Origin: a virus
Lineage: Duplodnaviria > Caudoviricetes
IMG/VR virus record: IMGVR_UViG_3300032330_001063
Location: 1 to 36,456 of that record
Length of the DNA: 36,456 nucleotides
Reading direction: 5' to 3' (one strand)
A program made the position numbers and the translations under genes. Positions 4,297-36,456 of the stretch are shown here, one piece after another. The notes under the pieces are model-generated. The model was not told the origin of the DNA. It saw only the letters and a list, made by a program, of their open reading frames with translations, and made no database searches. Numbering within the stretch: position 1 is the first letter of the stretch; every line of letters starts with the position of its first letter.

Positions 4297-4622
4297 CGGA
4301 CGACAGGCTGTCTTGGTTGCTCGATCTATGGCGGGACTGGATGCGGCGCTCAGATCACCGTCACGAGCTGGGCTACCCGTCCACCGCTGCGGGCATCCGG
4401 TTTAGGGCTGGCAGCGATTTCGACAGCATGGTGGACAACGTTGACAACACCCAGGCGCTTGCTGTGGATGCGGCTATTGACAGCCTGCCGCACCTGGAGC
4501 GCGTTGCTGTGCATCACGTCCTAATCGCCAGCATCTACCGGGCACGGGAGCCACTGCAAGACGTTTATCAGCGCGCTCGGGAGCGCCTGAAGATCAGCCT
4601 GCACGCAAGGAACATCGAATGA
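4293..4622 (+). CDS. Q-like late antiterminator
   Basis: LLDLWRDWMR...LGYPS...AVDAAIDSLPHLER pattern; lies before a terminator and the terminase genes. Confidence 0.7.
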   Translation: MTDDRLSWLLDLWRDWMRRSDHRHELGYPSTAAGIRFRAGSDFDSMVDNVDNTQALAVDAAIDSLPHLERVAVHHVLIASIYRAREPLQDVYQRARERLKISLHARNIE

Positions 4623-13093: not shown

Positions 13094-14314
13094 ATGCCGC
13101 TGCCGCCCATCCCGCCGCGAGGTGCGCGCAGGCTTACGCCTGCCATACAAAATCGCGCGCCCGGAGACATTGCGGAATCGGCAACCTTTGGGCCGAATAA
13201 GCAGTACGACTTTTTAGTCGGCAACGCTGTCGCCGCGGGCGGATCTGGCGCGGCAACCATCACTAGCGGCCTTGGTTGCGGCATTGGCAACGCAGTCGCT
13301 GCGGGCAGCGCATTTACGCTGAGCCAGTACGGCCTTCGCGTCACGTGGGCTGAGGCCGCGTACCAAGCCATTGTCAATGTCTCGTTGCCGATAAATGTCG
13401 GCAACGCTGTGGCGTCCGGCGGTGGCGCAGCGACCGTCAATGTCTCTATCGCCGGCAGTGTTGGCAACGCAGTCGCTGCGGGCAACACGGCTGGTTTTAA
13501 CCAAACGACCACCTTTGGCGTTGGCGATGCGGTGGCCGCAGGCAGCGCGGCAGGCATCACCGTCTATGACGCTGTGCGCGTCACTTGGGCAGAAGCGCAG
13601 TACCAAGCGATCCCCAACGTTACCGTCCCGTTCACGGTGGGCAATGCTGTGGCGGCTGGCGCTACAGCAGGCGTGGCCGTCTACGGCGCGGTGCGCGTCA
13701 CCTGGGCCGAAGCGCAGTATCAGGCAACTAGCGGCACCACCGTCCCGCTCTCTGTTGGCAACGCTAACGCATCAGGCTCTACCGCAACAATTAGCGGTGC
13801 CGATTTAGTCCCGCTCGGAATTGGCAATGCAGTCGCAGGCGGGCCGTCTGGCGCAACGGTCAGCGTCGATCTGACTCTGGACTGCGGTACAGGCAATGCA
13901 GTTGCTGAAGGCCAAACCTGCCTGCTGCCAGCGCTCACCGTCGCACCCAGTGCAACCCCAGGCTATGCGCCCAAGACGCGCTACCGCGTGCGGGTGGGTA
14001 CTCGGTGGATGGAGGTTGATCCGCTCGATCCGATGAGCGTGCGTAGAGCCTACGACGCTGCACAGGAAGACGCGCAAGACGCTGCCACGCAAGACGTAGA
14101 AGCACCCGCCGCTGTGGCCGCACAGGCCGTGGTGGTGCGGCCCATCAAGGGGCCGGATTACACGGGGCTTGCCAAAGAAGCCCGCCGGATTAGCGAAGAC
14201 ATCCGCAAGGTTTACGCAGACGCACTGCAAACCGCACTCATCGCGCGCCTCATGCGCGAACAGATAGAGCGCGACGACGAAGACGACATCGCCGTCCTGC
14301 TCGCAAGCATCTAA
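13094..14314 (+). CDS. Repeat-containing putative virion protein
   Basis: About 9 GNAVA(A/S)G-type repeats, 3 RVTWAEA(A/Q)YQA repeats and an acidic tail DDEDDIAVLLA. Confidence 0.75.
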   Translation: MPLPPIPPRGARRLTPAIQNRAPGDIAESATFGPNKQYDFLVGNAVAAGGSGAATITSGLGCGIGNAVAAGSAFTLSQYGLRVTWAEAAYQAIVNVSLPINVGNAVASGGGAATVNVSIAGSVGNAVAAGNTAGFNQTTTFGVGDAVAAGSAAGITVYDAVRVTWAEAQYQAIPNVTVPFTVGNAVAAGATAGVAVYGAVRVTWAEAQYQATSGTTVPLSVGNANASGSTATISGADLVPLGIGNAVAGGPSGATVSVDLTLDCGTGNAVAEGQTCLLPALTVAPSATPGYAPKTRYRVRVGTRWMEVDPLDPMSVRRAYDAAQEDAQDAATQDVEAPAAVAAQAVVVRPIKGPDYTGLAKEARRISEDIRKVYADALQTALIARLMREQIERDDEDDIAVLLASI

Positions 14315-15495: not shown

Positions 15496-16197
15496 ATGGT
15501 AATACCGAGCCAAGACCTGATTGAATGCAAGACGTGTGGCAAGGCTGCAAAGCCTCATAAAGCCCACAAACTCCACTGCGATGCTTGTGCCAAAGCCAAG
15601 CAGGTGGAGTACCAGCGTCAGTACAGAGAAAGAACAAAGGCAGCAAACAAGACCGTGACCTGCAAAGGTTGCGGGGCTGAGTTCACGACGGAGCGATCCG
15701 GCAGAACTTGGCGTTGCGCAGAGTGCACTCGGGTTTATCTGGCCGAAAGGCGACAGAAAGACCAGTACAGGCACAACGTGTACGCAAAGCAGTACCGAGA
15801 GCGACTCGGTGCTGCATACACGGAGAAGATGCGCAACCGGCGCAGAGAGCTAGTTGCTACGCTACCTCCTGATGAGCTTGAAAAGTTCCGTCAGGCAGAA
15901 CGCGACAAAACGCTCCGATCGCAAGCTGTCATGAAGGAAGCGGTTTTTCAAGCATATGGCGGCTATCGCTGCGTATGCTGCGGAGAAACCGAGCCGCTGT
16001 TTCTGTCTGTAGATCACATCTACAACGACGGCAACGAAATGCGAAAGAACGGAATTCACGCGCGCGGCGGTTCAGCGTTTTATCGTTGGATAAAGCGTCA
16101 CAACTTCCCGCCCGGATTTCAAATCCTCTGTATGAACTGCAACACCGGCAAGCATCGCAACGGCGGTGTGTGCCCGCATCAATCAGGTAAGGTGTAA
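15496..16197 (+). CDS. Intron-encoded HNH homing endonuclease
   Basis: Multiple CxxC pairs; CVCCGE...LSVDHIYNDG...LCMNCNTGKH is an HNH/His-Me motif; inserted in the P6 loop. Confidence 0.88.
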   Translation: MVIPSQDLIECKTCGKAAKPHKAHKLHCDACAKAKQVEYQRQYRERTKAANKTVTCKGCGAEFTTERSGRTWRCAECTRVYLAERRQKDQYRHNVYAKQYRERLGAAYTEKMRNRRRELVATLPPDELEKFRQAERDKTLRSQAVMKEAVFQAYGGYRCVCCGETEPLFLSVDHIYNDGNEMRKNGIHARGGSAFYRWIKRHNFPPGFQILCMNCNTGKHRNGGVCPHQSGKV

Positions 16198-30877: not shown

Positions 30878-31074
30878 CGTTCGCCCTCCTTATGTTTGGC
30901 TCGCAAGAATGCCACCAAATCCGACGCAAGAAATACCCAAGCACGGCCAACCTTGACGCCCGTCACCTTGCCTGCAGCGGCCAGCTCGCCCAGATGGTCG
31001 GCACTGCACTGCAACGCTTGCGCAGCCTCCTCGATGCCGAGGAACGTTTCTTGTGGCGTGACAACCAAAGTCAT
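30694..31074 (-). CDS. xis: Excisionase-like HTH protein
   Basis: FLGIEEAAQALQCSADHLGELAAAGKVTGVKVGRAWVFLASDLVAFL; overlaps the int start. Confidence 0.8.
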   Translation of the reverse strand: MTLVVTPQETFLGIEEAAQALQCSADHLGELAAAGKVTGVKVGRAWVFLASDLVAFLRAKHKEGERCVSTPVVRTGMRTSVGSRASSELAELLGPSRSSRKSRQQSRHTNSPQHSSPSLTLLQPDR

Positions 31075-31295
31075 TTGGCACGATCCTGCGCAGCTTGGGC
31101 ATGCTTGTTGATTACTGCGTCAATGAGCTTACTGTGCGCGTCGTCGGGGTGCCCAATGATTGATCGAGCCAGCTTCAAAGCCTCCAGCACCGCATCCGGC
31201 TCGGCCTGCTCCAGCTTGTCTCGCAATTCATCCCGCCGCCGAAGAACGCAGGCGGGGCGGATGCAGTAGTAACTGCACGAATGGATTTCACTCAT
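31071..31295 (-). CDS. Hypothetical protein (IHSCSYYCIRPAC motif)
   Basis: ATGA-coupled at both ends. Confidence 0.7.
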   Translation of the reverse strand: MSEIHSCSYYCIRPACVLRRRDELRDKLEQAEPDAVLEALKLARSIIGHPDDAHSKLIDAVINKHAQAAQDRAK

Positions 31296-31624
31296 TCTTT
31301 CCCCCTTGCGCGGATGGCAGCAGCGCAGTGGTCGTTCCCAAGCGCATCAAGCTGTTTAGCGCAGGCTTCACGCTCGGCCTCTACAGCGGCTTGCACTTGC
31401 CCGCAGAACTGTGTCGTGCGCTGGCCTTTGGCGCACTGCCGCCAGCCTTCGATCTTCATATTTATCCTTTCATCATAGGTAGCGAGGTCTATCAAGCGCT
31501 CGATGATTGGGTAAATGTTTTCTTCGTCGCCATAAATGTGCGGGGCTTCATCTGTTGATTCGTCAGGAGTCAGGCAAGAAAAACCTGCTTCCCGCGCCAT
31601 GCGGATGATGTCGTCGCGTGTCAT
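31292..31624 (-). CDS. Hypothetical protein (MTRDDIIRMAREAG...EREACAK...AAAIRARG type)
   Basis: Common mosaic early-gene motif set; start at ATG 31624. Confidence 0.75.
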   Translation of the reverse strand: MTRDDIIRMAREAGFSCLTPDESTDEAPHIYGDEENIYPIIERLIDLATYDERINMKIEGWRQCAKGQRTTQFCGQVQAAVEAEREACAKQLDALGNDHCAAAIRARGKE

Positions 31625-31806
31625 TTGGCACGATCCTGCCCAGCTTGGGCATGCCAACCGCGCAGCTTGGCAATCTCAGCGCACGCACATGCGTAATGCG
31701 CCGGCCCCCACGACCAACAGCCGTCTACGTGGGTTATTTGCGGGTTTGTAGGCACCTTTGGCGAATTATCGTCCGCTGATAATTCCGGATAACTTGGTTC
31801 GCTCAC
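31621..31806 (-). CDS. Hypothetical protein (THVDGCWSWGPAHYACA motif)
   Basis: GTGA-coupled start at 31806. Confidence 0.6.
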   Translation of the reverse strand: MSEPSYPELSADDNSPKVPTNPQITHVDGCWSWGPAHYACACAEIAKLRGWHAQAGQDRAK

Positions 31807-32138: not shown

Positions 32139-32308
32139 CGAGGCTCCTGCACCACATATCCATGATTTCGCAGCAGGCGCGCAGCGGCACGCAACTTAGG
32201 CGTCACCGTGTCGCGCTTCTTCTTTGGCCGGCCTGCATGCGGCACCCACTGCTGTCCGAATGTCTCTTGCATTTGCGGCAAGTGCTTGGTGTCGAAAGGG
32301 CTTGTCAC
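32135..32308 (-). CDS. Small hypothetical protein
   Basis: GTGA-coupled start; ...AAARLLRNHGYVV. Confidence 0.55.
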   Translation of the reverse strand: MTSPFDTKHLPQMQETFGQQWVPHAGRPKKKRDTVTPKLRAAARLLRNHGYVVQEPR

Positions 32309-32553
32309 AGCTCCATCTCCATCTGCTGCCGCACCGCGTTGACCCGCGCCCACGCAGCGATGTCTAGCGCCAGTTCGTCATGTGAGTTTCGCCAGGGCGT
32401 CAGCGGTTTTTCTTCCGTGACGCGGAACAAGTCGTCGCGCTGCGTGACAACCATGCGCACTTGGCCGCCTGCCCGAATGCGCATTTCGTAGCGGGTTGTG
32501 GCGCTGCCGTTCATGCTGTCCAGCAGCGCGCGGGGTGATTTTTTGCCTGTCAT
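32305..32553 (-). CDS. Hypothetical protein (MTGKKSPRALLD...), 82 aa
   Basis: GGAAAGGAAAGG RBS before ATG 32553, right after the repeat array. Confidence 0.6.
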   Translation of the reverse strand: MTGKKSPRALLDSMNGSATTRYEMRIRAGGQVRMVVTQRDDLFRVTEEKPLTPWRNSHDELALDIAAWARVNAVRQQMEMEL

Positions 32554-32573
32554 GCCTTTCCTTTCCAAATTCC

Positions 32574-33018
32574 GCCACGCCTCGCCTGCCCAACCAAGCC
32601 CCGCCAGTCCGCGCCACGCCGTACCGAGCCAAGCCCAACCTAGCCGTGCCTGCCGTGCCCCGCCCATCCAATCCTTGCCGGGCCACGCCACTCCAGACCC
32701 AGCCTCGCCTGCCTTGCCGCGCCCCACCGGGCCGTGCCAATCCCCGCCATGCCCCGCCTCGCCTTGCCTGCCTAGCCTTGCCTTGCCTCGCCTAGCCCCG
32801 CCCCACCAAACCTCGCCTGCCATACCGAACTGGGCCTGACCTAGCCGCGCCCCGCCAATCTCTGCCATACCTCGCCTGCCGCTCCATGCCCGGCCACTCC
32901 CGGCCACTCCCGGCCGTGCCGCTCCGTGCCTCGCCTGCCATGCCCTGCCTGACTCGGCCCTGCCACACCGCGCCACGCCGAGCCATGCCCTGCTACGCCG
33001 TGCCTAGCCGCGCCTGCC
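32574..33018 (-). repeat. GGH-NN pentamer array 1 (putative guide-RNA array)
   Basis: 82 pentamers (58 GGC, 11 GGT, 9 GGA, 4 degenerate), each with a variable dinucleotide; eight 4-nt phase breaks (GGCAGGC) give blocks of 15, 11, 11, 9, 11, 11, 12 and 2 units. Confidence 0.92.
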
Positions 33019-33495
33019 TTACGCCGCCAGCCCATCCTCATCTGGCCGGCGACGCACAACCTTCGCGCTCATTAACCCAAGCCGCTCCACCATCTCATCC
33101 ACTTCGCGCATCAGCCCGAACATCCGCGACAGCTCCCGCGTGCGTTCCAGTAATGCGCGGGCGCGCGCAAACTCCTGCGCCAGCGTCTGGTGCTGCAAAT
33201 CCTCGACGCTAATAGAGCGGGTAGCGATATAGCTTTGTGTTGCCGGCTGCGCCTCTGGGTTGCGCACATACCTGGGGACGGTCAGCGAATAGCTGTCGGT
33301 GGTGATGACAACCTTGCGGGAAAGCAGGGTGCGGGCTTGCCACACGCGATGCGCGTGGCCCGCCTTTTCGTTGTCCCACTCAAAACAGTTATGCGCTGGA
33401 CAGTCGGGGTCTTGCGCCAACTCCACCAGTTCGTCGGGGGTGATGTTGGGATGCTCGCGCTCAATCTCATCAAGCCACTCGCTGATCGTTTCCAT
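33019..33495 (-). CDS. Partner protein of the RAMP-like gene
   Basis: ITPDELVELAQDPDCPAHNCFEWDNEKAGHAHRVWQARTLL; TAATG-coupled to the upstream gene; array 1 starts at its stop codon. Confidence 0.8.
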   Translation of the reverse strand: METISEWLDEIEREHPNITPDELVELAQDPDCPAHNCFEWDNEKAGHAHRVWQARTLLSRKVVITTDSYSLTVPRYVRNPEAQPATQSYIATRSISVEDLQHQTLAQEFARARALLERTRELSRMFGLMREVDEMVERLGLMSAKVVRRRPDEDGLAA

Positions 33496-34262
33496 TAGGC
33501 AGCCACCTTAAATCCGCGACGCTTCACCTCGACATCGAACCAGCCCATCAATTCCTCGGTCTGATCGTCATAGCACTGCGGGTCATCCATTGCCGCAATC
33601 TGCGCAGCCCTGCCGCCCGTACTCACAACCTGCGCAAACGCCGGATCGGTTTCGGCCATGCCAATGTCGAATTGGCCGAAAGTTCCGCTGCCTTTCTCCG
33701 GACGCCAATCGCCCACACCGATCGTTAGTCCCGCCTGGGTCAGCAAGTTGACGATGCTGGTGGTCTTGATGATGGACGACGCGAAATGCACGTGGATCGT
33801 TGCGGCCCACTGCGGGACGATGCAACGGGTGCGAATGTCCGGCGTGCGGTTCATGTCTGCACTGCGCACGGGCGTCATCAGAACCTTGGGGACGCCAAAG
33901 ATTTGGATGTATTCGCCTTCGATGAACGTAAGCCGGCCAATCTGCGACTTAGCCGCACCGGGCACATCAATTGCTGCTGTTCTGAGCGCGCCTTTGAATG
34001 CCGTGCTTGGCATCGCCAGCAGGGTCGCGGCGCTGTCGTCGTTGATCCGGTGCGGTGAGCTGCGAAACTCTGCCATCGGGTCATGCTTCAAACTGCTAGC
34101 CTTTTCTGCCGCGTTCTTGCGGCCCTTTGGCATCAGCAGCTCATGCAGCACTTTCTCGCTGAGTCGATTCAGAATCAGCGGGGTGCGACCAAGCACGTTG
34201 ACGGTGAGTCGCTCGCGTCGAATCTCCGGGACTTCGATTTCGGTACTCTTTGTCGTAGCCAT
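33495..34262 (-). CDS. Stand-alone Cas7/RAMP-like RNA-binding protein
   Basis: RAMP hallmarks in order: VNVLGRTPLIL (beta1-TPL), MPSTAFKGALRTAA (cf. IPGSSLKGALR) and C-terminal G-rich loop GVGDWRPEKGSGTFGQF. Confidence 0.78.
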   Translation of the reverse strand: MATTKSTEIEVPEIRRERLTVNVLGRTPLILNRLSEKVLHELLMPKGRKNAAEKASSLKHDPMAEFRSSPHRINDDSAATLLAMPSTAFKGALRTAAIDVPGAAKSQIGRLTFIEGEYIQIFGVPKVLMTPVRSADMNRTPDIRTRCIVPQWAATIHVHFASSIIKTTSIVNLLTQAGLTIGVGDWRPEKGSGTFGQFDIGMAETDPAFAQVVSTGGRAAQIAAMDDPQCYDDQTEELMGWFDVEVKRRGFKVAA

Positions 34263-34280
34263 CTGTCACTCTCCTAAGTT

Positions 34281-34318
34281 GATGCGCCATTCGCATCGGT
34301 CAGGGCTGTCCCTGACCG
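34281..34318 (-). other. Two tandem hairpins between array 2 and the RAMP-like RBS
   Basis: CGGTCAGGG-N4-CCCTGACCG (34297-34318) and GATGCG-N5-CGCATC (34281-34297). Confidence 0.7.
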
Positions 34319-34327
34319 CTGAAAACG

Positions 34328-34519
34328 GCCTGCCTTGTCACAACTCACCGCACCTTGCCTTGCCTGGCCCTGCCTCGCCCCGCCTTGCCGCGCCTGGCCC
34401 CGCCCTGCCATGCCTGCCAATCCTCGCCGGGCCTTGCGTTACCGCGCCGATCCAAGCCACGCCCTGCCTGCCTAGCCTTGCCATGCCAGGCCGCGCCGAG
34501 CCGCGCCCTGCCTTGCCTC
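34328..34519 (-). repeat. GGH-NN pentamer array 2 (putative guide-RNA array)
   Basis: 36 pentamers in blocks of 10, 10 and 16, each ended by GGCAGGC; starts 2 nt after the upstream stop codon. Confidence 0.9.
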
Positions 34520-34521
34520 GG

Positions 34522-34776
34522 CTAAAAGGGCACGTCTTCCTGATACGAACCCGCAGACTGACGACGCGGCTGCGGACGTTGCTGCTGATCGTCACGCGGC
34601 TTAGGCTCAAAGAAACTCAGCCAGCCGTCAAAGTTCACCGGCAGCGATTCCAGCTTCAGCGACAAGCCGTTTTTGCCCTCGATCACCACGCCGCACTTAA
34701 TCCATTTCTGCTTTTCCTCGCCGGATTGAGTGGTGTACTTTTCGCCGCGTGCGCAGGCTTCGAATTTGACGCTCAT
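34522..34776 (-). CDS. Small SSB-like protein
   Basis: Beta-rich core, Q-rich linker and acidic tip EDVPF like SSB C-termini; next to exo/erf. Confidence 0.65.
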   Translation of the reverse strand: MSVKFEACARGEKYTTQSGEEKQKWIKCGVVIEGKNGLSLKLESLPVNFDGWLSFFEPKPRDDQQQRPQPRRQSAGSYQEDVPF

Positions 34777-35387
34777 GCTTTCTCCGTAAGTTGTTCAAAC
34801 ATTGCTTCCACTTCCGCAAGGAATTTGCGGGCGTGTTCTTCGATCTCTTCCACTTCTTCGCGCTTAGGCGTCCACTCAACGATGTGTAAGTGCAATTGAG
34901 AGTCAAGAAGGCGCGGGGCATAGCTGCAAAAAACGGCATGCTGGCGGCCTGTGCATGCAAGCTGAACCAAAATCTGAGGCTTGTGCTGCTCTGGGATGCC
35001 GCCAGCAAGTAGCCATGAAATGTGCGTTGTGTTTGCCGGACACTTAAATTCGATAACCCCATCATCCGAGAGCAGGCCATCCGGCGATGCTCCAAAGTGC
35101 GCAATTGAGGGGTGCTCAATGAATCCGCAGTCGGAAATGATCCGGCCTGTTGCTATCTCAAAAGCCGCCTTGGCTTCATCTTCGGTTTCAATCCCCCATC
35201 GCATGTGTTCGCTGACGAAGTGCGGAGTCAGTGCACCGCTGATGCGCTCCGAAATCAGTTCAAGTTTCAGCAACTTGCGCTTTGCGCCTTCAGCGCCCTG
35301 CTTTGTCATGTCGAGCGCTTGATACATGCGCGAAGCAGTCAGCTTTCCAATCCTCTGATTCAGCCGCGCGCCCTTTTCGTCGTTCAC
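34773..35387 (-). CDS. YqaJ / lambda-exonuclease family recombination nuclease
   Basis: RIGKLTASRM, MRWGIETE, GASPDGL, IEFKCP, PQILVQL; GTGA-coupled start at 35387. Confidence 0.93.
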   Translation of the reverse strand: MNDEKGARLNQRIGKLTASRMYQALDMTKQGAEGAKRKLLKLELISERISGALTPHFVSEHMRWGIETEDEAKAAFEIATGRIISDCGFIEHPSIAHFGASPDGLLSDDGVIEFKCPANTTHISWLLAGGIPEQHKPQILVQLACTGRQHAVFCSYAPRLLDSQLHLHIVEWTPKREEVEEIEEHARKFLAEVEAMFEQLTEKA

Positions 35388-35602
35388 AGCCGCCCGTCCA
35401 GTTCGTCCAGGGCGTCCTCTGCACGGCACAGTGCCCGCCCGTACTCTTCTTCAGATGTCGGCTTGCACTGATGCGCAATCACATAGTCGGCATCCATTCT
35501 GCGCACCACATCGACGAGGTTGCGCAGCGCGCCAATGGCATCGCTACGGTAGACATCGCCACGGCGGCGCATCGGTTTGTTTGGATAGGTTTGCGTGTTC
35601 AT
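35384..35602 (-). CDS. Hypothetical protein
   Basis: Coupled to both neighbours. Confidence 0.65.
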   Translation of the reverse strand: MNTQTYPNKPMRRRGDVYRSDAIGALRNLVDVVRRMDADYVIAHQCKPTSEEEYGRALCRAEDALDELDGRL

Positions 35603-36174
35603 GCGGGCACCTTCTCTGCGGCTGACTTCAATGCGGCCTGGTGCTGCGTCCAGACGCTAGTTTTAGTCGGGCTGTTGGGGATGGACTTAAACCGAGCCTG
35701 CAACGCCTCCAGGCCGTCTACAGCGGCTTCGCGCAGTGAGTCCAAGATCAGCGCCGCTTCCTGATCGTTGGCGCGTTCTGCGGGCTTTTGCGTGGGCTTG
35801 CTGGCCACGGCGCTGTTGCCGTCGTCGTCTTCTGCCGGCACACCAAACGCGGCCATCAAGCTGTATCTGCGGGCATACGTCATCGCACTACCAAACCCCT
35901 GAGCGTCCTGCTTGCTGGCCGGCATAAACAGCGGCCCGCAGGCCAGAGATTCGCCAGATGCGTGATGAATTACCGTCTCAATGCACACACCGCCATCAGC
36001 CGGGTGCGTGATCTGCCGGAAGAACAGGCCATGCTCGGCCAGGGCGGGCTTGATCGCGTCGACCACTGCGGCCAAGTCGGCGTACTTAGAGCGGAATGCG
36101 GGATTGGTCTTGCCCTTCACCGCGCCTTCGATCTGCGCGAATGCTTTCGCCATTGCTTCGCTAATGTTCTTCAC
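35599..36174 (-). CDS. erf: Erf-family single-strand annealing protein
   Basis: NPAFRSKYADL...QGFGSAMTYARRYSLMAAFGV..EDDDGN signature; GTG start at 36174. Confidence 0.94.
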   Translation of the reverse strand: MKNISEAMAKAFAQIEGAVKGKTNPAFRSKYADLAAVVDAIKPALAEHGLFFRQITHPADGGVCIETVIHHASGESLACGPLFMPASKQDAQGFGSAMTYARRYSLMAAFGVPAEDDDGNSAVASKPTQKPAERANDQEAALILDSLREAAVDGLEALQARFKSIPNSPTKTSVWTQHQAALKSAAEKVPA

Positions 36175-36338
36175 AGCATCACTCCCCACAAAGTGGCCAC
36201 CAGAAGGCCCAAAACTGCCCAAACCACTGCGCCGGCAATCACTGCAAACAAGATCCCTTCAAAGGCATCGTGCTGTCGACGTTGCTGCTGGCACTCGCGC
36301 CAGCCCTGTCCATACCGCGTTGAATGCGCTGCACTCAT
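36171..36338 (-). CDS. Small single-TM protein (MSAAHSTRYGQGW...)
   Basis: C-terminal hydrophobic helix; ATGA/GTGA coupling on both sides. Confidence 0.6.
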   Translation of the reverse strand: MSAAHSTRYGQGWRECQQQRRQHDAFEGILFAVIAGAVVWAVLGLLVATLWGVML

Positions 36339-36456
36339 TTCTGTTTCTCCTGAACTTTCTGGACGGCTTGCCATGTCTTTCTGATGTCGGTCTTGCGCAA
36401 GTTGACGGGGAACCCTTTCACGCGCTGGTCGCACCAGCCCAAGACGGGCGCGCGGC
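36334..36456. repeat. Terminal direct repeat, right copy
   Basis: Identical to 1-123. Confidence 0.97.

Follow-up and report, generated by a model that had tools for sequence, protein, structure and literature searches.

We find that a 36,456-nucleotide phage genome (IMG/VR record IMGVR_UViG_3300032330_001063; this whole stretch is called the window below) very probably carries a VIPR locus, in which a RAMP protein would polymerise on an RNA made of repeated pentamers. Small islands integrated in the host are the likely targets, with their integrase and primase-helicase genes silenced by the guide units. From its sequence, the locus is likely to act as an anti-island silencer. VIPR systems, described in preprints of 2026 (10.64898/2026.04.26.720920), are CRISPR-related RNA-guided DNA binders. 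According to the accessible text of two of these preprints (10.64898/2026.04.26.720920, 10.64898/2026.04.26.720927), in SUSP1 and P. fulva one Vipr subunit per pentamer grips GG-Y, the other two bases (NN) pair with double-stranded DNA, and the bound DNA is not cut but transcriptionally repressed.

A 123-nt terminal repeat marks the window as a complete, circularly permuted phage genome. Its genes include those for terminase, portal, major head protein, ejection protein, endolysin, integrase, excisionase and repressor, a content that points to a temperate podophage. In the leftward early region, the cassette immediately follows erf, a YqaJ exonuclease gene and an 84-aa gene that appears to be ssb-like from its position and acidic tail (Table 1). 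On the minus strand, an upstream array (34331-34517) is followed by a hairpin leader (34281-34317), the 255-aa and 158-aa ORFs, which overlap by one base, and a downstream array (32552-33018, including its terminal run); an earlier note on this DNA had given this order and this place in the early region, and both agree with our coordinates. The leader (folding z = -3.98) is near-identical across loci L001-L007 and had no match in Rfam, and a sigma-70 promoter search of 32300-36456 gave no match. Elsewhere in the window we noted an HNH-type endonuclease gene between the scaffold and major head genes (15496-16197), a 35-nt direct repeat (97%; 31070-31104 and 31620-31654, 550 bp apart) around two small early genes, and degenerate coding repeats (13217-13844) within a 406-aa ORF (13094-14314).

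DNA runs with freshwater or lake labels contain relatives of the stretch (four runs, one possibly the source of the window DNA), and no RNA datasets containing it were listed. A search with the integrase against genomes gave only 27-50% matches over most of its length, mostly in Legionellaceae-labelled and Methylococcaceae contigs, and a cluster look-up named no host. The bacterial genomes searched below come from the order around genome G001, a guessed search space, and the matched islands may never meet this phage.

Table 1. Features of the VIPR cassette and its guide units (positions in the window)
Feature	Position	Strand	Remarks
84-aa gene just upstream of cassette	34522-34776	-	phrog_18187, function unknown
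Upstream staggered guide array	34331-34517	-	units U1-U3, GGCA slip closing each
U1	34473-34517	-	9 pentamers
U2	34419-34468	-	10 pentamers
U3	34335-34414	-	16 pentamers
U3b (last 10 pentamers of U3)	34335-34384	-	decodes to G-D-S-H-K-N-A-E-V of AAA_25 helicase, 9/10 NN
Structured leader between array and vipr	34281-34317	-	two adjacent hairpins or one long stem
vipr, 255-aa RAMP protein	33495-34262	-	fold and PHROG match
vap-type accessory gene, 158 aa	33019-33495	-	phrog_15946
Downstream staggered guide array	32587-33018	-	units D1-D7; 5-nt GG periodicity and slips
D1	32940-33014	-	15 pentamers
D2	32881-32935	-	11 pentamers; decodes to E-T-A-T-R-V-R-x-R-I of P4-type integrases, best 9/11 NN (moderate support)
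D3	32822-32876	-	11 pentamers
D4	32773-32817	-	9 pentamers
D5	32714-32768	-	11 pentamers
D6	32655-32709	-	11 pentamers; decodes to D-W-L-V-V-P-N-L-W-G of DUF3987 primase-helicases, best 9/11 NN
D7	32591-32650	-	12 pentamers; antisense to H-K-P-S-A-T-[AV]-E-K-H-Y of tyrosine integrase family, best 11/12 NN
Short conserved terminal repeat run	32552-32586	-	ends in GGAAAGGAAAGG; overlaps next gene's likely ribosome-binding site

The predicted structure identifies the 255-aa protein as a RAMP, as the earlier note had claimed, and profile matches make it homologous to SUSP1 Vipr, in line with the resemblance to VIPR that the note had pointed out. The best Foldseek matches of the structure model (pLDDT 85.5) were Csm3/Cas7 chains (E 5e-6), and VIA-align placed 149-156 residues on Csm3, Cas7 and Cmr4 chains (Z 9.5, rmsd 3.2-3.4) at 7-18% identity; the RRM core, thumb and G-loop (G182-V-G-D-W-R187) of RAMPs are all present. 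No match was found in Pfam or NCBIfam, and 1571 relatives were found. Both the window protein (3e-17) and SUSP1 Vipr (gene agp039, 1e-96) match phrog_4652, and hhalign of a 98-sequence profile against SUSP1 Vipr gave 94.5% probability over 51 columns. The key RNA-binding residues are kept, with SUSP1 R138, D177, W178 and R179 aligning to window R146, D185, W186 and R187, the last of which is Arg in 31/31 aligned proteins; the SUSP1 agp039 residues agree with the numbering in the accessible text of the VIPR structure preprint (10.64898/2026.04.26.720927). A tblastn search of cultured phages did not recover SUSP1, and the link to it came from profiles.

We also note that a C-terminal three-helix extension (residues about 203-255, some 55 residues more than SUSP1 Vipr) lies outside the fold matches; it is conserved within the clade, with invariant R218, Q221, P228, W241, E245 and R249, and is missing from SUSP1 Vipr. 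On the question of GGA tolerance and smaller pocket residues, MAFFT and a by-eye motif alignment put SUSP1 E71/M72 at differing places. Cultured Mycobacterium and Gordonia phages (H1-H32) carry Vipr homologues of 27-36% identity and would be tractable test systems.

The 158-aa protein belongs to phrog_15946, and a homologue adjoins vipr in 27 of the 48 loci described below. It showed no BLASTP similarity to SUSP1 Vap1 (phrog_5926), Foldseek gave no match at E <= 0.001 and only generic helical-hairpin matches, and its atlas neighbours are unnamed viral clusters. Profile scans of the ORFs recognised no cas gene or nuclease effector for the system, and a repeat search found no CRISPR repeat in the window, again in agreement with the earlier note.

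Both arrays are strongly periodic. The upstream array had 30 recurrences of GG at distance 5 (shuffle mean 9.0, max 17) and the downstream array 79 (shuffle mean 28.6, max 42; 1000 shuffles each), and the window held no other phased run of more than four repeats. The 5-nt phase is not strict, as had been described, since it slips by one base at every GGCA/GGC junction, and these slips bound ten units of 9-16 pentamers. A constant GG(C/T/A) triplet had also been described; the third base is indeed never G (C 86, T 17, A 12, G 0 in the 115 pentamers of the ten units), but 7/115 pentamers do not begin with GG (108/115 do). Likewise, the NN said to vary freely do differ among arrays, but their usage tracks codon positions 1-2, and which third base a pentamer has depends on the NN after it. 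In the window arrays together with those of L001-L007, GGA before TT and CT was far commoner than expected (chi-square 155, 30 df, small cells). The units abut directly, without a structured 3' tail each and with only one structured leader, and no tail, ribozyme or Rfam element was found between them. U3 is probably a fusion of two units, because U3b stands as a separate unit in L004 and L007 (10/10 NN equal), with GGCAA in the window in place of the slip.

In a set of 50 unique units, how often each NN is used goes with codon positions 1-2 of the coding strand (r = 0.76), compared to -0.33 to 0.24 for the five other registers; no target is needed for this agreement with the published one-base skip. 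At the target sites described below, the skipped base was variable (majority base 0.52-0.58) compared to read positions (0.74-0.99), and by eye the third base of the U3b pentamers is no copy of the skipped target base. The terminal NN beside slips often mismatch (first NN of D7, 0/19 sites; last NN of U3b, 0.11), and no unit matches the phage's own genome above 6/10 NN. The non-contiguous NN guide proposed earlier stands insofar as NN strings decode to genes with a one-base skip, but the 1-nt slips divide each array into several guides, where a single string had been proposed.

With two bases read and one skipped, 4/10 units match motifs conserved in integrase/primase islands. Scanning viral contigs with U3b for exact 8-NN matches gave 21 loci, 4 of which share the motif GDSHKNAE of an AAA_25 helicase; two of the four reach 9/10 NN. 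The same unit matched 9/10 NN in 55/80 metagenome loci with that helicase, a set partly seeded on the motif, and 8 or 9 of 10 NN in 12/20 genome regions, which were picked by whole-protein search (20 of 23 matches). A check on this target that is independent, in that the guide was not used in any locus selection, came from a sister guide of L001/L051/L053 that reads VWSGEDDPAD in the same helicase: it matches 10/10 in L318 and at least 7/8 NN in 76/134 loci, whereas 4 x 52 shuffles reached at most 5, and other skips at most 3.

For D7, all loci from the scan (20/20) fell in one motif, HKPSAT[AV]EKHY, of an Arm-domain tyrosine integrase, which is probably its catalytic His-Tyr stretch; the match was 11/12 NN in one locus, 10 in seventeen and 9 in two. 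The scan pattern was tuned after a first 8/12 match, and the NN left free matched in 18/20. The D6 scan gave 3/331 genomes vs 3 control matches, two of the three being DWLVVPNLWG in DUF3987 primase-helicases adjoining integrases; this motif reached 7-9 of 11 NN in 7/18 further DUF3987 regions, and the D6 locus count (8/18) equals the shuffle maximum. The D2 scan gave 19 matches vs about 25 control matches, and 8/19, both best ones included, lie in the KTETATR[VL]R motif of P4-type integrases (2/19 are in unpublished genomes, neither an integrase, and no result depends on them). Since D2 and D6 counts are no higher than controls, these assignments draw on motif identity rather than on counts, and from sequence matches of this kind we regard the D2 target as moderately supported and weaker than the other three. 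An integrase lies within 16/20 of the helicase regions and 10/20 of the DUF3987 regions, and AlpA in 3/20 and 5/20, respectively.

No target was found for six of the ten units in the sets searched, which for U1, the first part of U3, D1, D4 and D5 were the fetched loci only. U2 gave 29 viral loci, of which none extended 5' and 2 extended 3', and 8/281 genomes with unrelated proteins (4 control matches). D3 gave two viral loci, one being an unbroken match of 9 NN in an AT-rich contig of 78 kb, which we took as chance, and 3/331 genomes, all in a host cytochrome c gene at 8/11 NN (2 control matches); the recurrence of this family in three genomes indicates that conserved families can recur by chance. 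No match to the island set was found for 35 units of more distant loci. Some partial resemblances were also seen: D5 starts like the L004/L007 ssb-like guide described below and then diverges, the L006 unit at 714 resembles the integrase motif MLTDTAIRNAK (8/10), and the L005 unit at 4359 resembles the integrase motif SNAAINAA (7/10), the last two near shuffle level.

We examined 48 viral loci with a vipr homologue. At least six phased GG were present on the gene's strand in 30/48 of these loci and on the other strand in 0/48, and a more tolerant finder detected arrays in 37/48; the earlier note had called for homologues with adjacent arrays of differing NN, and such arrays were found, always on the gene's strand. 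In contrast, among control phage loci only 6/160 had any such run, each a single six-repeat run in a locus without Vipr. One locus (L008, 2812-2970) has a long unbroken upstream run, and the more distant loci (L018-L021, L028, L035-L046) seem to end their units in GGCG or other slips, not GGCA.

Close relatives bear on how guides may be gained, exchanged and lost. Seven phages have Vipr proteins 91-100% identical, yet their arrays differ; 7/10 window units share at least 7 NN in register with a unit elsewhere; D2 and D3 are identical in L002; and L057 has the empty site. Three loci that are otherwise the same phage as L001/L053 have lost vipr, the partner gene and the leader, through absence of 1406 bp (L051 and L054) or 1533 bp (L052), and keep one fused array (L051, about 2380-2750; L054, 3445-3810; L052, 2620-2860). 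The deletions end at 4-5 nt microhomologies, with two different breakpoints, and the fused array of L051 and L054 retains the guide against the AAA_25 helicase. We found no solo guide arrays among 187 fetched loci (the island and genome-hit set).

We considered that VIPR here might be aimed mainly at rival temperate phages and sister phages, with islands as one part of a broader anti-mobile-element library. An L004/L007 guide (unit at 2830) does match 8/9 NN, in frame, in an alternative ssb-like allele of L001 (2493-2519) and L051-L054, larger IMG/VR contigs also carry members of the D7 integrase family, and six window units are without a target. However, all four decodable units match integrase or primase-helicase genes, and matches in related-phage loci (both strands of 2.7 Mb, later of 5.0 Mb) were no more frequent than in shuffles, apart from that one ssb-like match, which at 1/52 real guides vs 0/312 shuffles is not significant by itself. 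We therefore think this broader aim possible but doubtful; the earlier note had suggested rival phages or host genes as targets, and the decodable units point to integrase/primase islands rather than host genes. A similarly tentative alternative concerns the guide RNA, namely that the array stays uncut, the 1-nt slip itself ending each Vipr filament on one long transcript so that the complex is a multi-guide scaffold. The bare junctions between units, the lack of a recognisable nuclease gene and the frequent mismatch of terminal NN next to slips are consistent with such a scaffold, as is the fact that the preprint text confirms by sequencing only the ribozyme and single-RNA types (10.64898/2026.04.26.720920); against it, the Fig. 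S18 legend, in the accessible part of the same preprint, has 'individual processed vrRNAs', and host RNases could trim unprotected junctions.

Two readings outside VIPR fare much worse. Non-coding G-rich repeats that expand by slippage, with island matches due to chance, would account for the low complexity of several units, for the six units without a target and for a third base that depends on NN, as in a recycled pentamer vocabulary; the strand-locked linkage to vipr, the codon 1-2 bias and matches of 10/10 and 11/12 far above shuffles make this very improbable, and the VWSGEDDPAD guide largely refutes it. Least credible of all, by a small step, is that the lone RAMP is an anti-CRISPR or the remnant of a CRISPR-Cas locus: its nearest solved folds are Csm3, Cas7 and Cmr4, but at very low identity, its sequence family is that of Vipr, and neither a CRISPR repeat nor a cas gene accompanies it among the ORFs scanned. 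One point does count against the VIPR reading itself, in that a tenth of the pentamers are GGA, while perturbing GGY, with GGA listed among the tested changes, abolished silencing in SUSP1 (10.64898/2026.04.26.720920).

If the locus is a VIPR silencer of islands, its arrays would be made within the early leftward transcript, and Vipr subunits would assemble one per pentamer, gripping GG-Y and presenting NN to double-stranded DNA so that transcription is repressed without cutting, as the accessible preprint text describes for SUSP1 and P. fulva (10.64898/2026.04.26.720920, 10.64898/2026.04.26.720927). The GGCA slip would mark guide ends, and the NN at either end of a unit would often stay unpaired; the accessory protein may help repression; the islands would be satellites or competitors of the phage; and guides may be renewed through recombination between arrays. 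We further offer, as a speculation more likely wrong than right, that the array of this staggered clade is a modular recombining library, in which tail-less guides bounded by a filament-ending 1-nt slip are traded whole between phages at GGCAGGC junctions and converge on catalytic motifs shared across families of island integrases and helicases, which would confer broad satellite immunity without an acquisition enzyme. If this is true, population data from these phages would make the origin of VIPR guides directly testable. Near-identical proteins with different arrays, shared whole units, an empty site and two breakpoints form a small natural data set on guide gain, swap and loss.

Among known systems, class 1 CRISPR RAMPs (Csm3, Cas7, Cmr4) share the RRM core, thumb and glycine-rich loop with the window protein, but the window is without a repeat-spacer array, cas genes or a contiguous guide. 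The target regions resemble PICMI/PICI-like integrase-AlpA-primase satellites as given in the accessible text of PMC10803314, where DUF3987 is one primase marker, in having a tyrosine integrase, sometimes AlpA, and a primase-helicase; unlike those satellites, many targets use AAA_25 rather than DUF3987, and AlpA was detected in few regions.

The nearest relatives are the VIPR systems themselves. With SUSP1 type II the window shares a PHROG, the G-loop D-W-R and thumb Arg, and a 1-nt skip on the wobble base. The accessible text of 10.64898/2026.10.15.759431 adds two further likenesses: SUSP1 VIPR blocks a satellite through active-site codons of its recombinase, that is, with guides on catalytic codons of a mobile-element recombinase; and relatives minus vipr-vap still keep guides, hundreds of vipr-null phages with solo guides being reported there. 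The differences are that the window Vipr has 255 aa, compared to 195 aa in SUSP1, and is alignable by BLASTP over 55 residues only; that the accessory proteins are phrog_15946 and phrog_5926, respectively; that SUSP1 guides are each tailed, whereas window guides have no pseudoknot tail and about 10% GGA; that the window phage, unlike SUSP1, is a temperate podophage; and that deletions in its clade have two different breakpoints, compared to one ancestral event in the SUSP1 type (same preprint and text). Thus, judged by its sequence, the window system is not type II, as it has neither Vap1 nor tails.

Like the staggered vrRNA arrays of 10.64898/2026.04.26.720920, in the accessible text, the window has vipr and one accessory gene in a phage, tandem pentamer guides and 1-nt overlaps, a likeness in overlap that follows the wording of the Fig. 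S18 legend alone, and the methods of that preprint permit NNNGG-type degeneracy. We conclude that the window system is, on every feature testable here with sequences and models, VIPR in the staggered-array layout. The preprints already cover VIPR, staggered arrays, the targeting of satellite recombinases and arrays without the protein, so specialists would not be surprised by this locus. The target searches of 10.64898/2026.04.26.720920 are confined to SUSP1, P. fulva and types III and V, and the accessible text of the VIPR preprints (10.64898/2026.04.26.720920, 10.64898/2026.04.26.720927, 10.64898/2026.10.15.759431, 10.64898/2026.10.21.760802) names no natural targets for staggered arrays. 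Our analysis would extend the VIPR code from tailed type II guides, the sole kind for which experiments have shown it, to a staggered clade that tolerates GGA; the natural targets named here for that clade are concrete and ready for a reporter assay.
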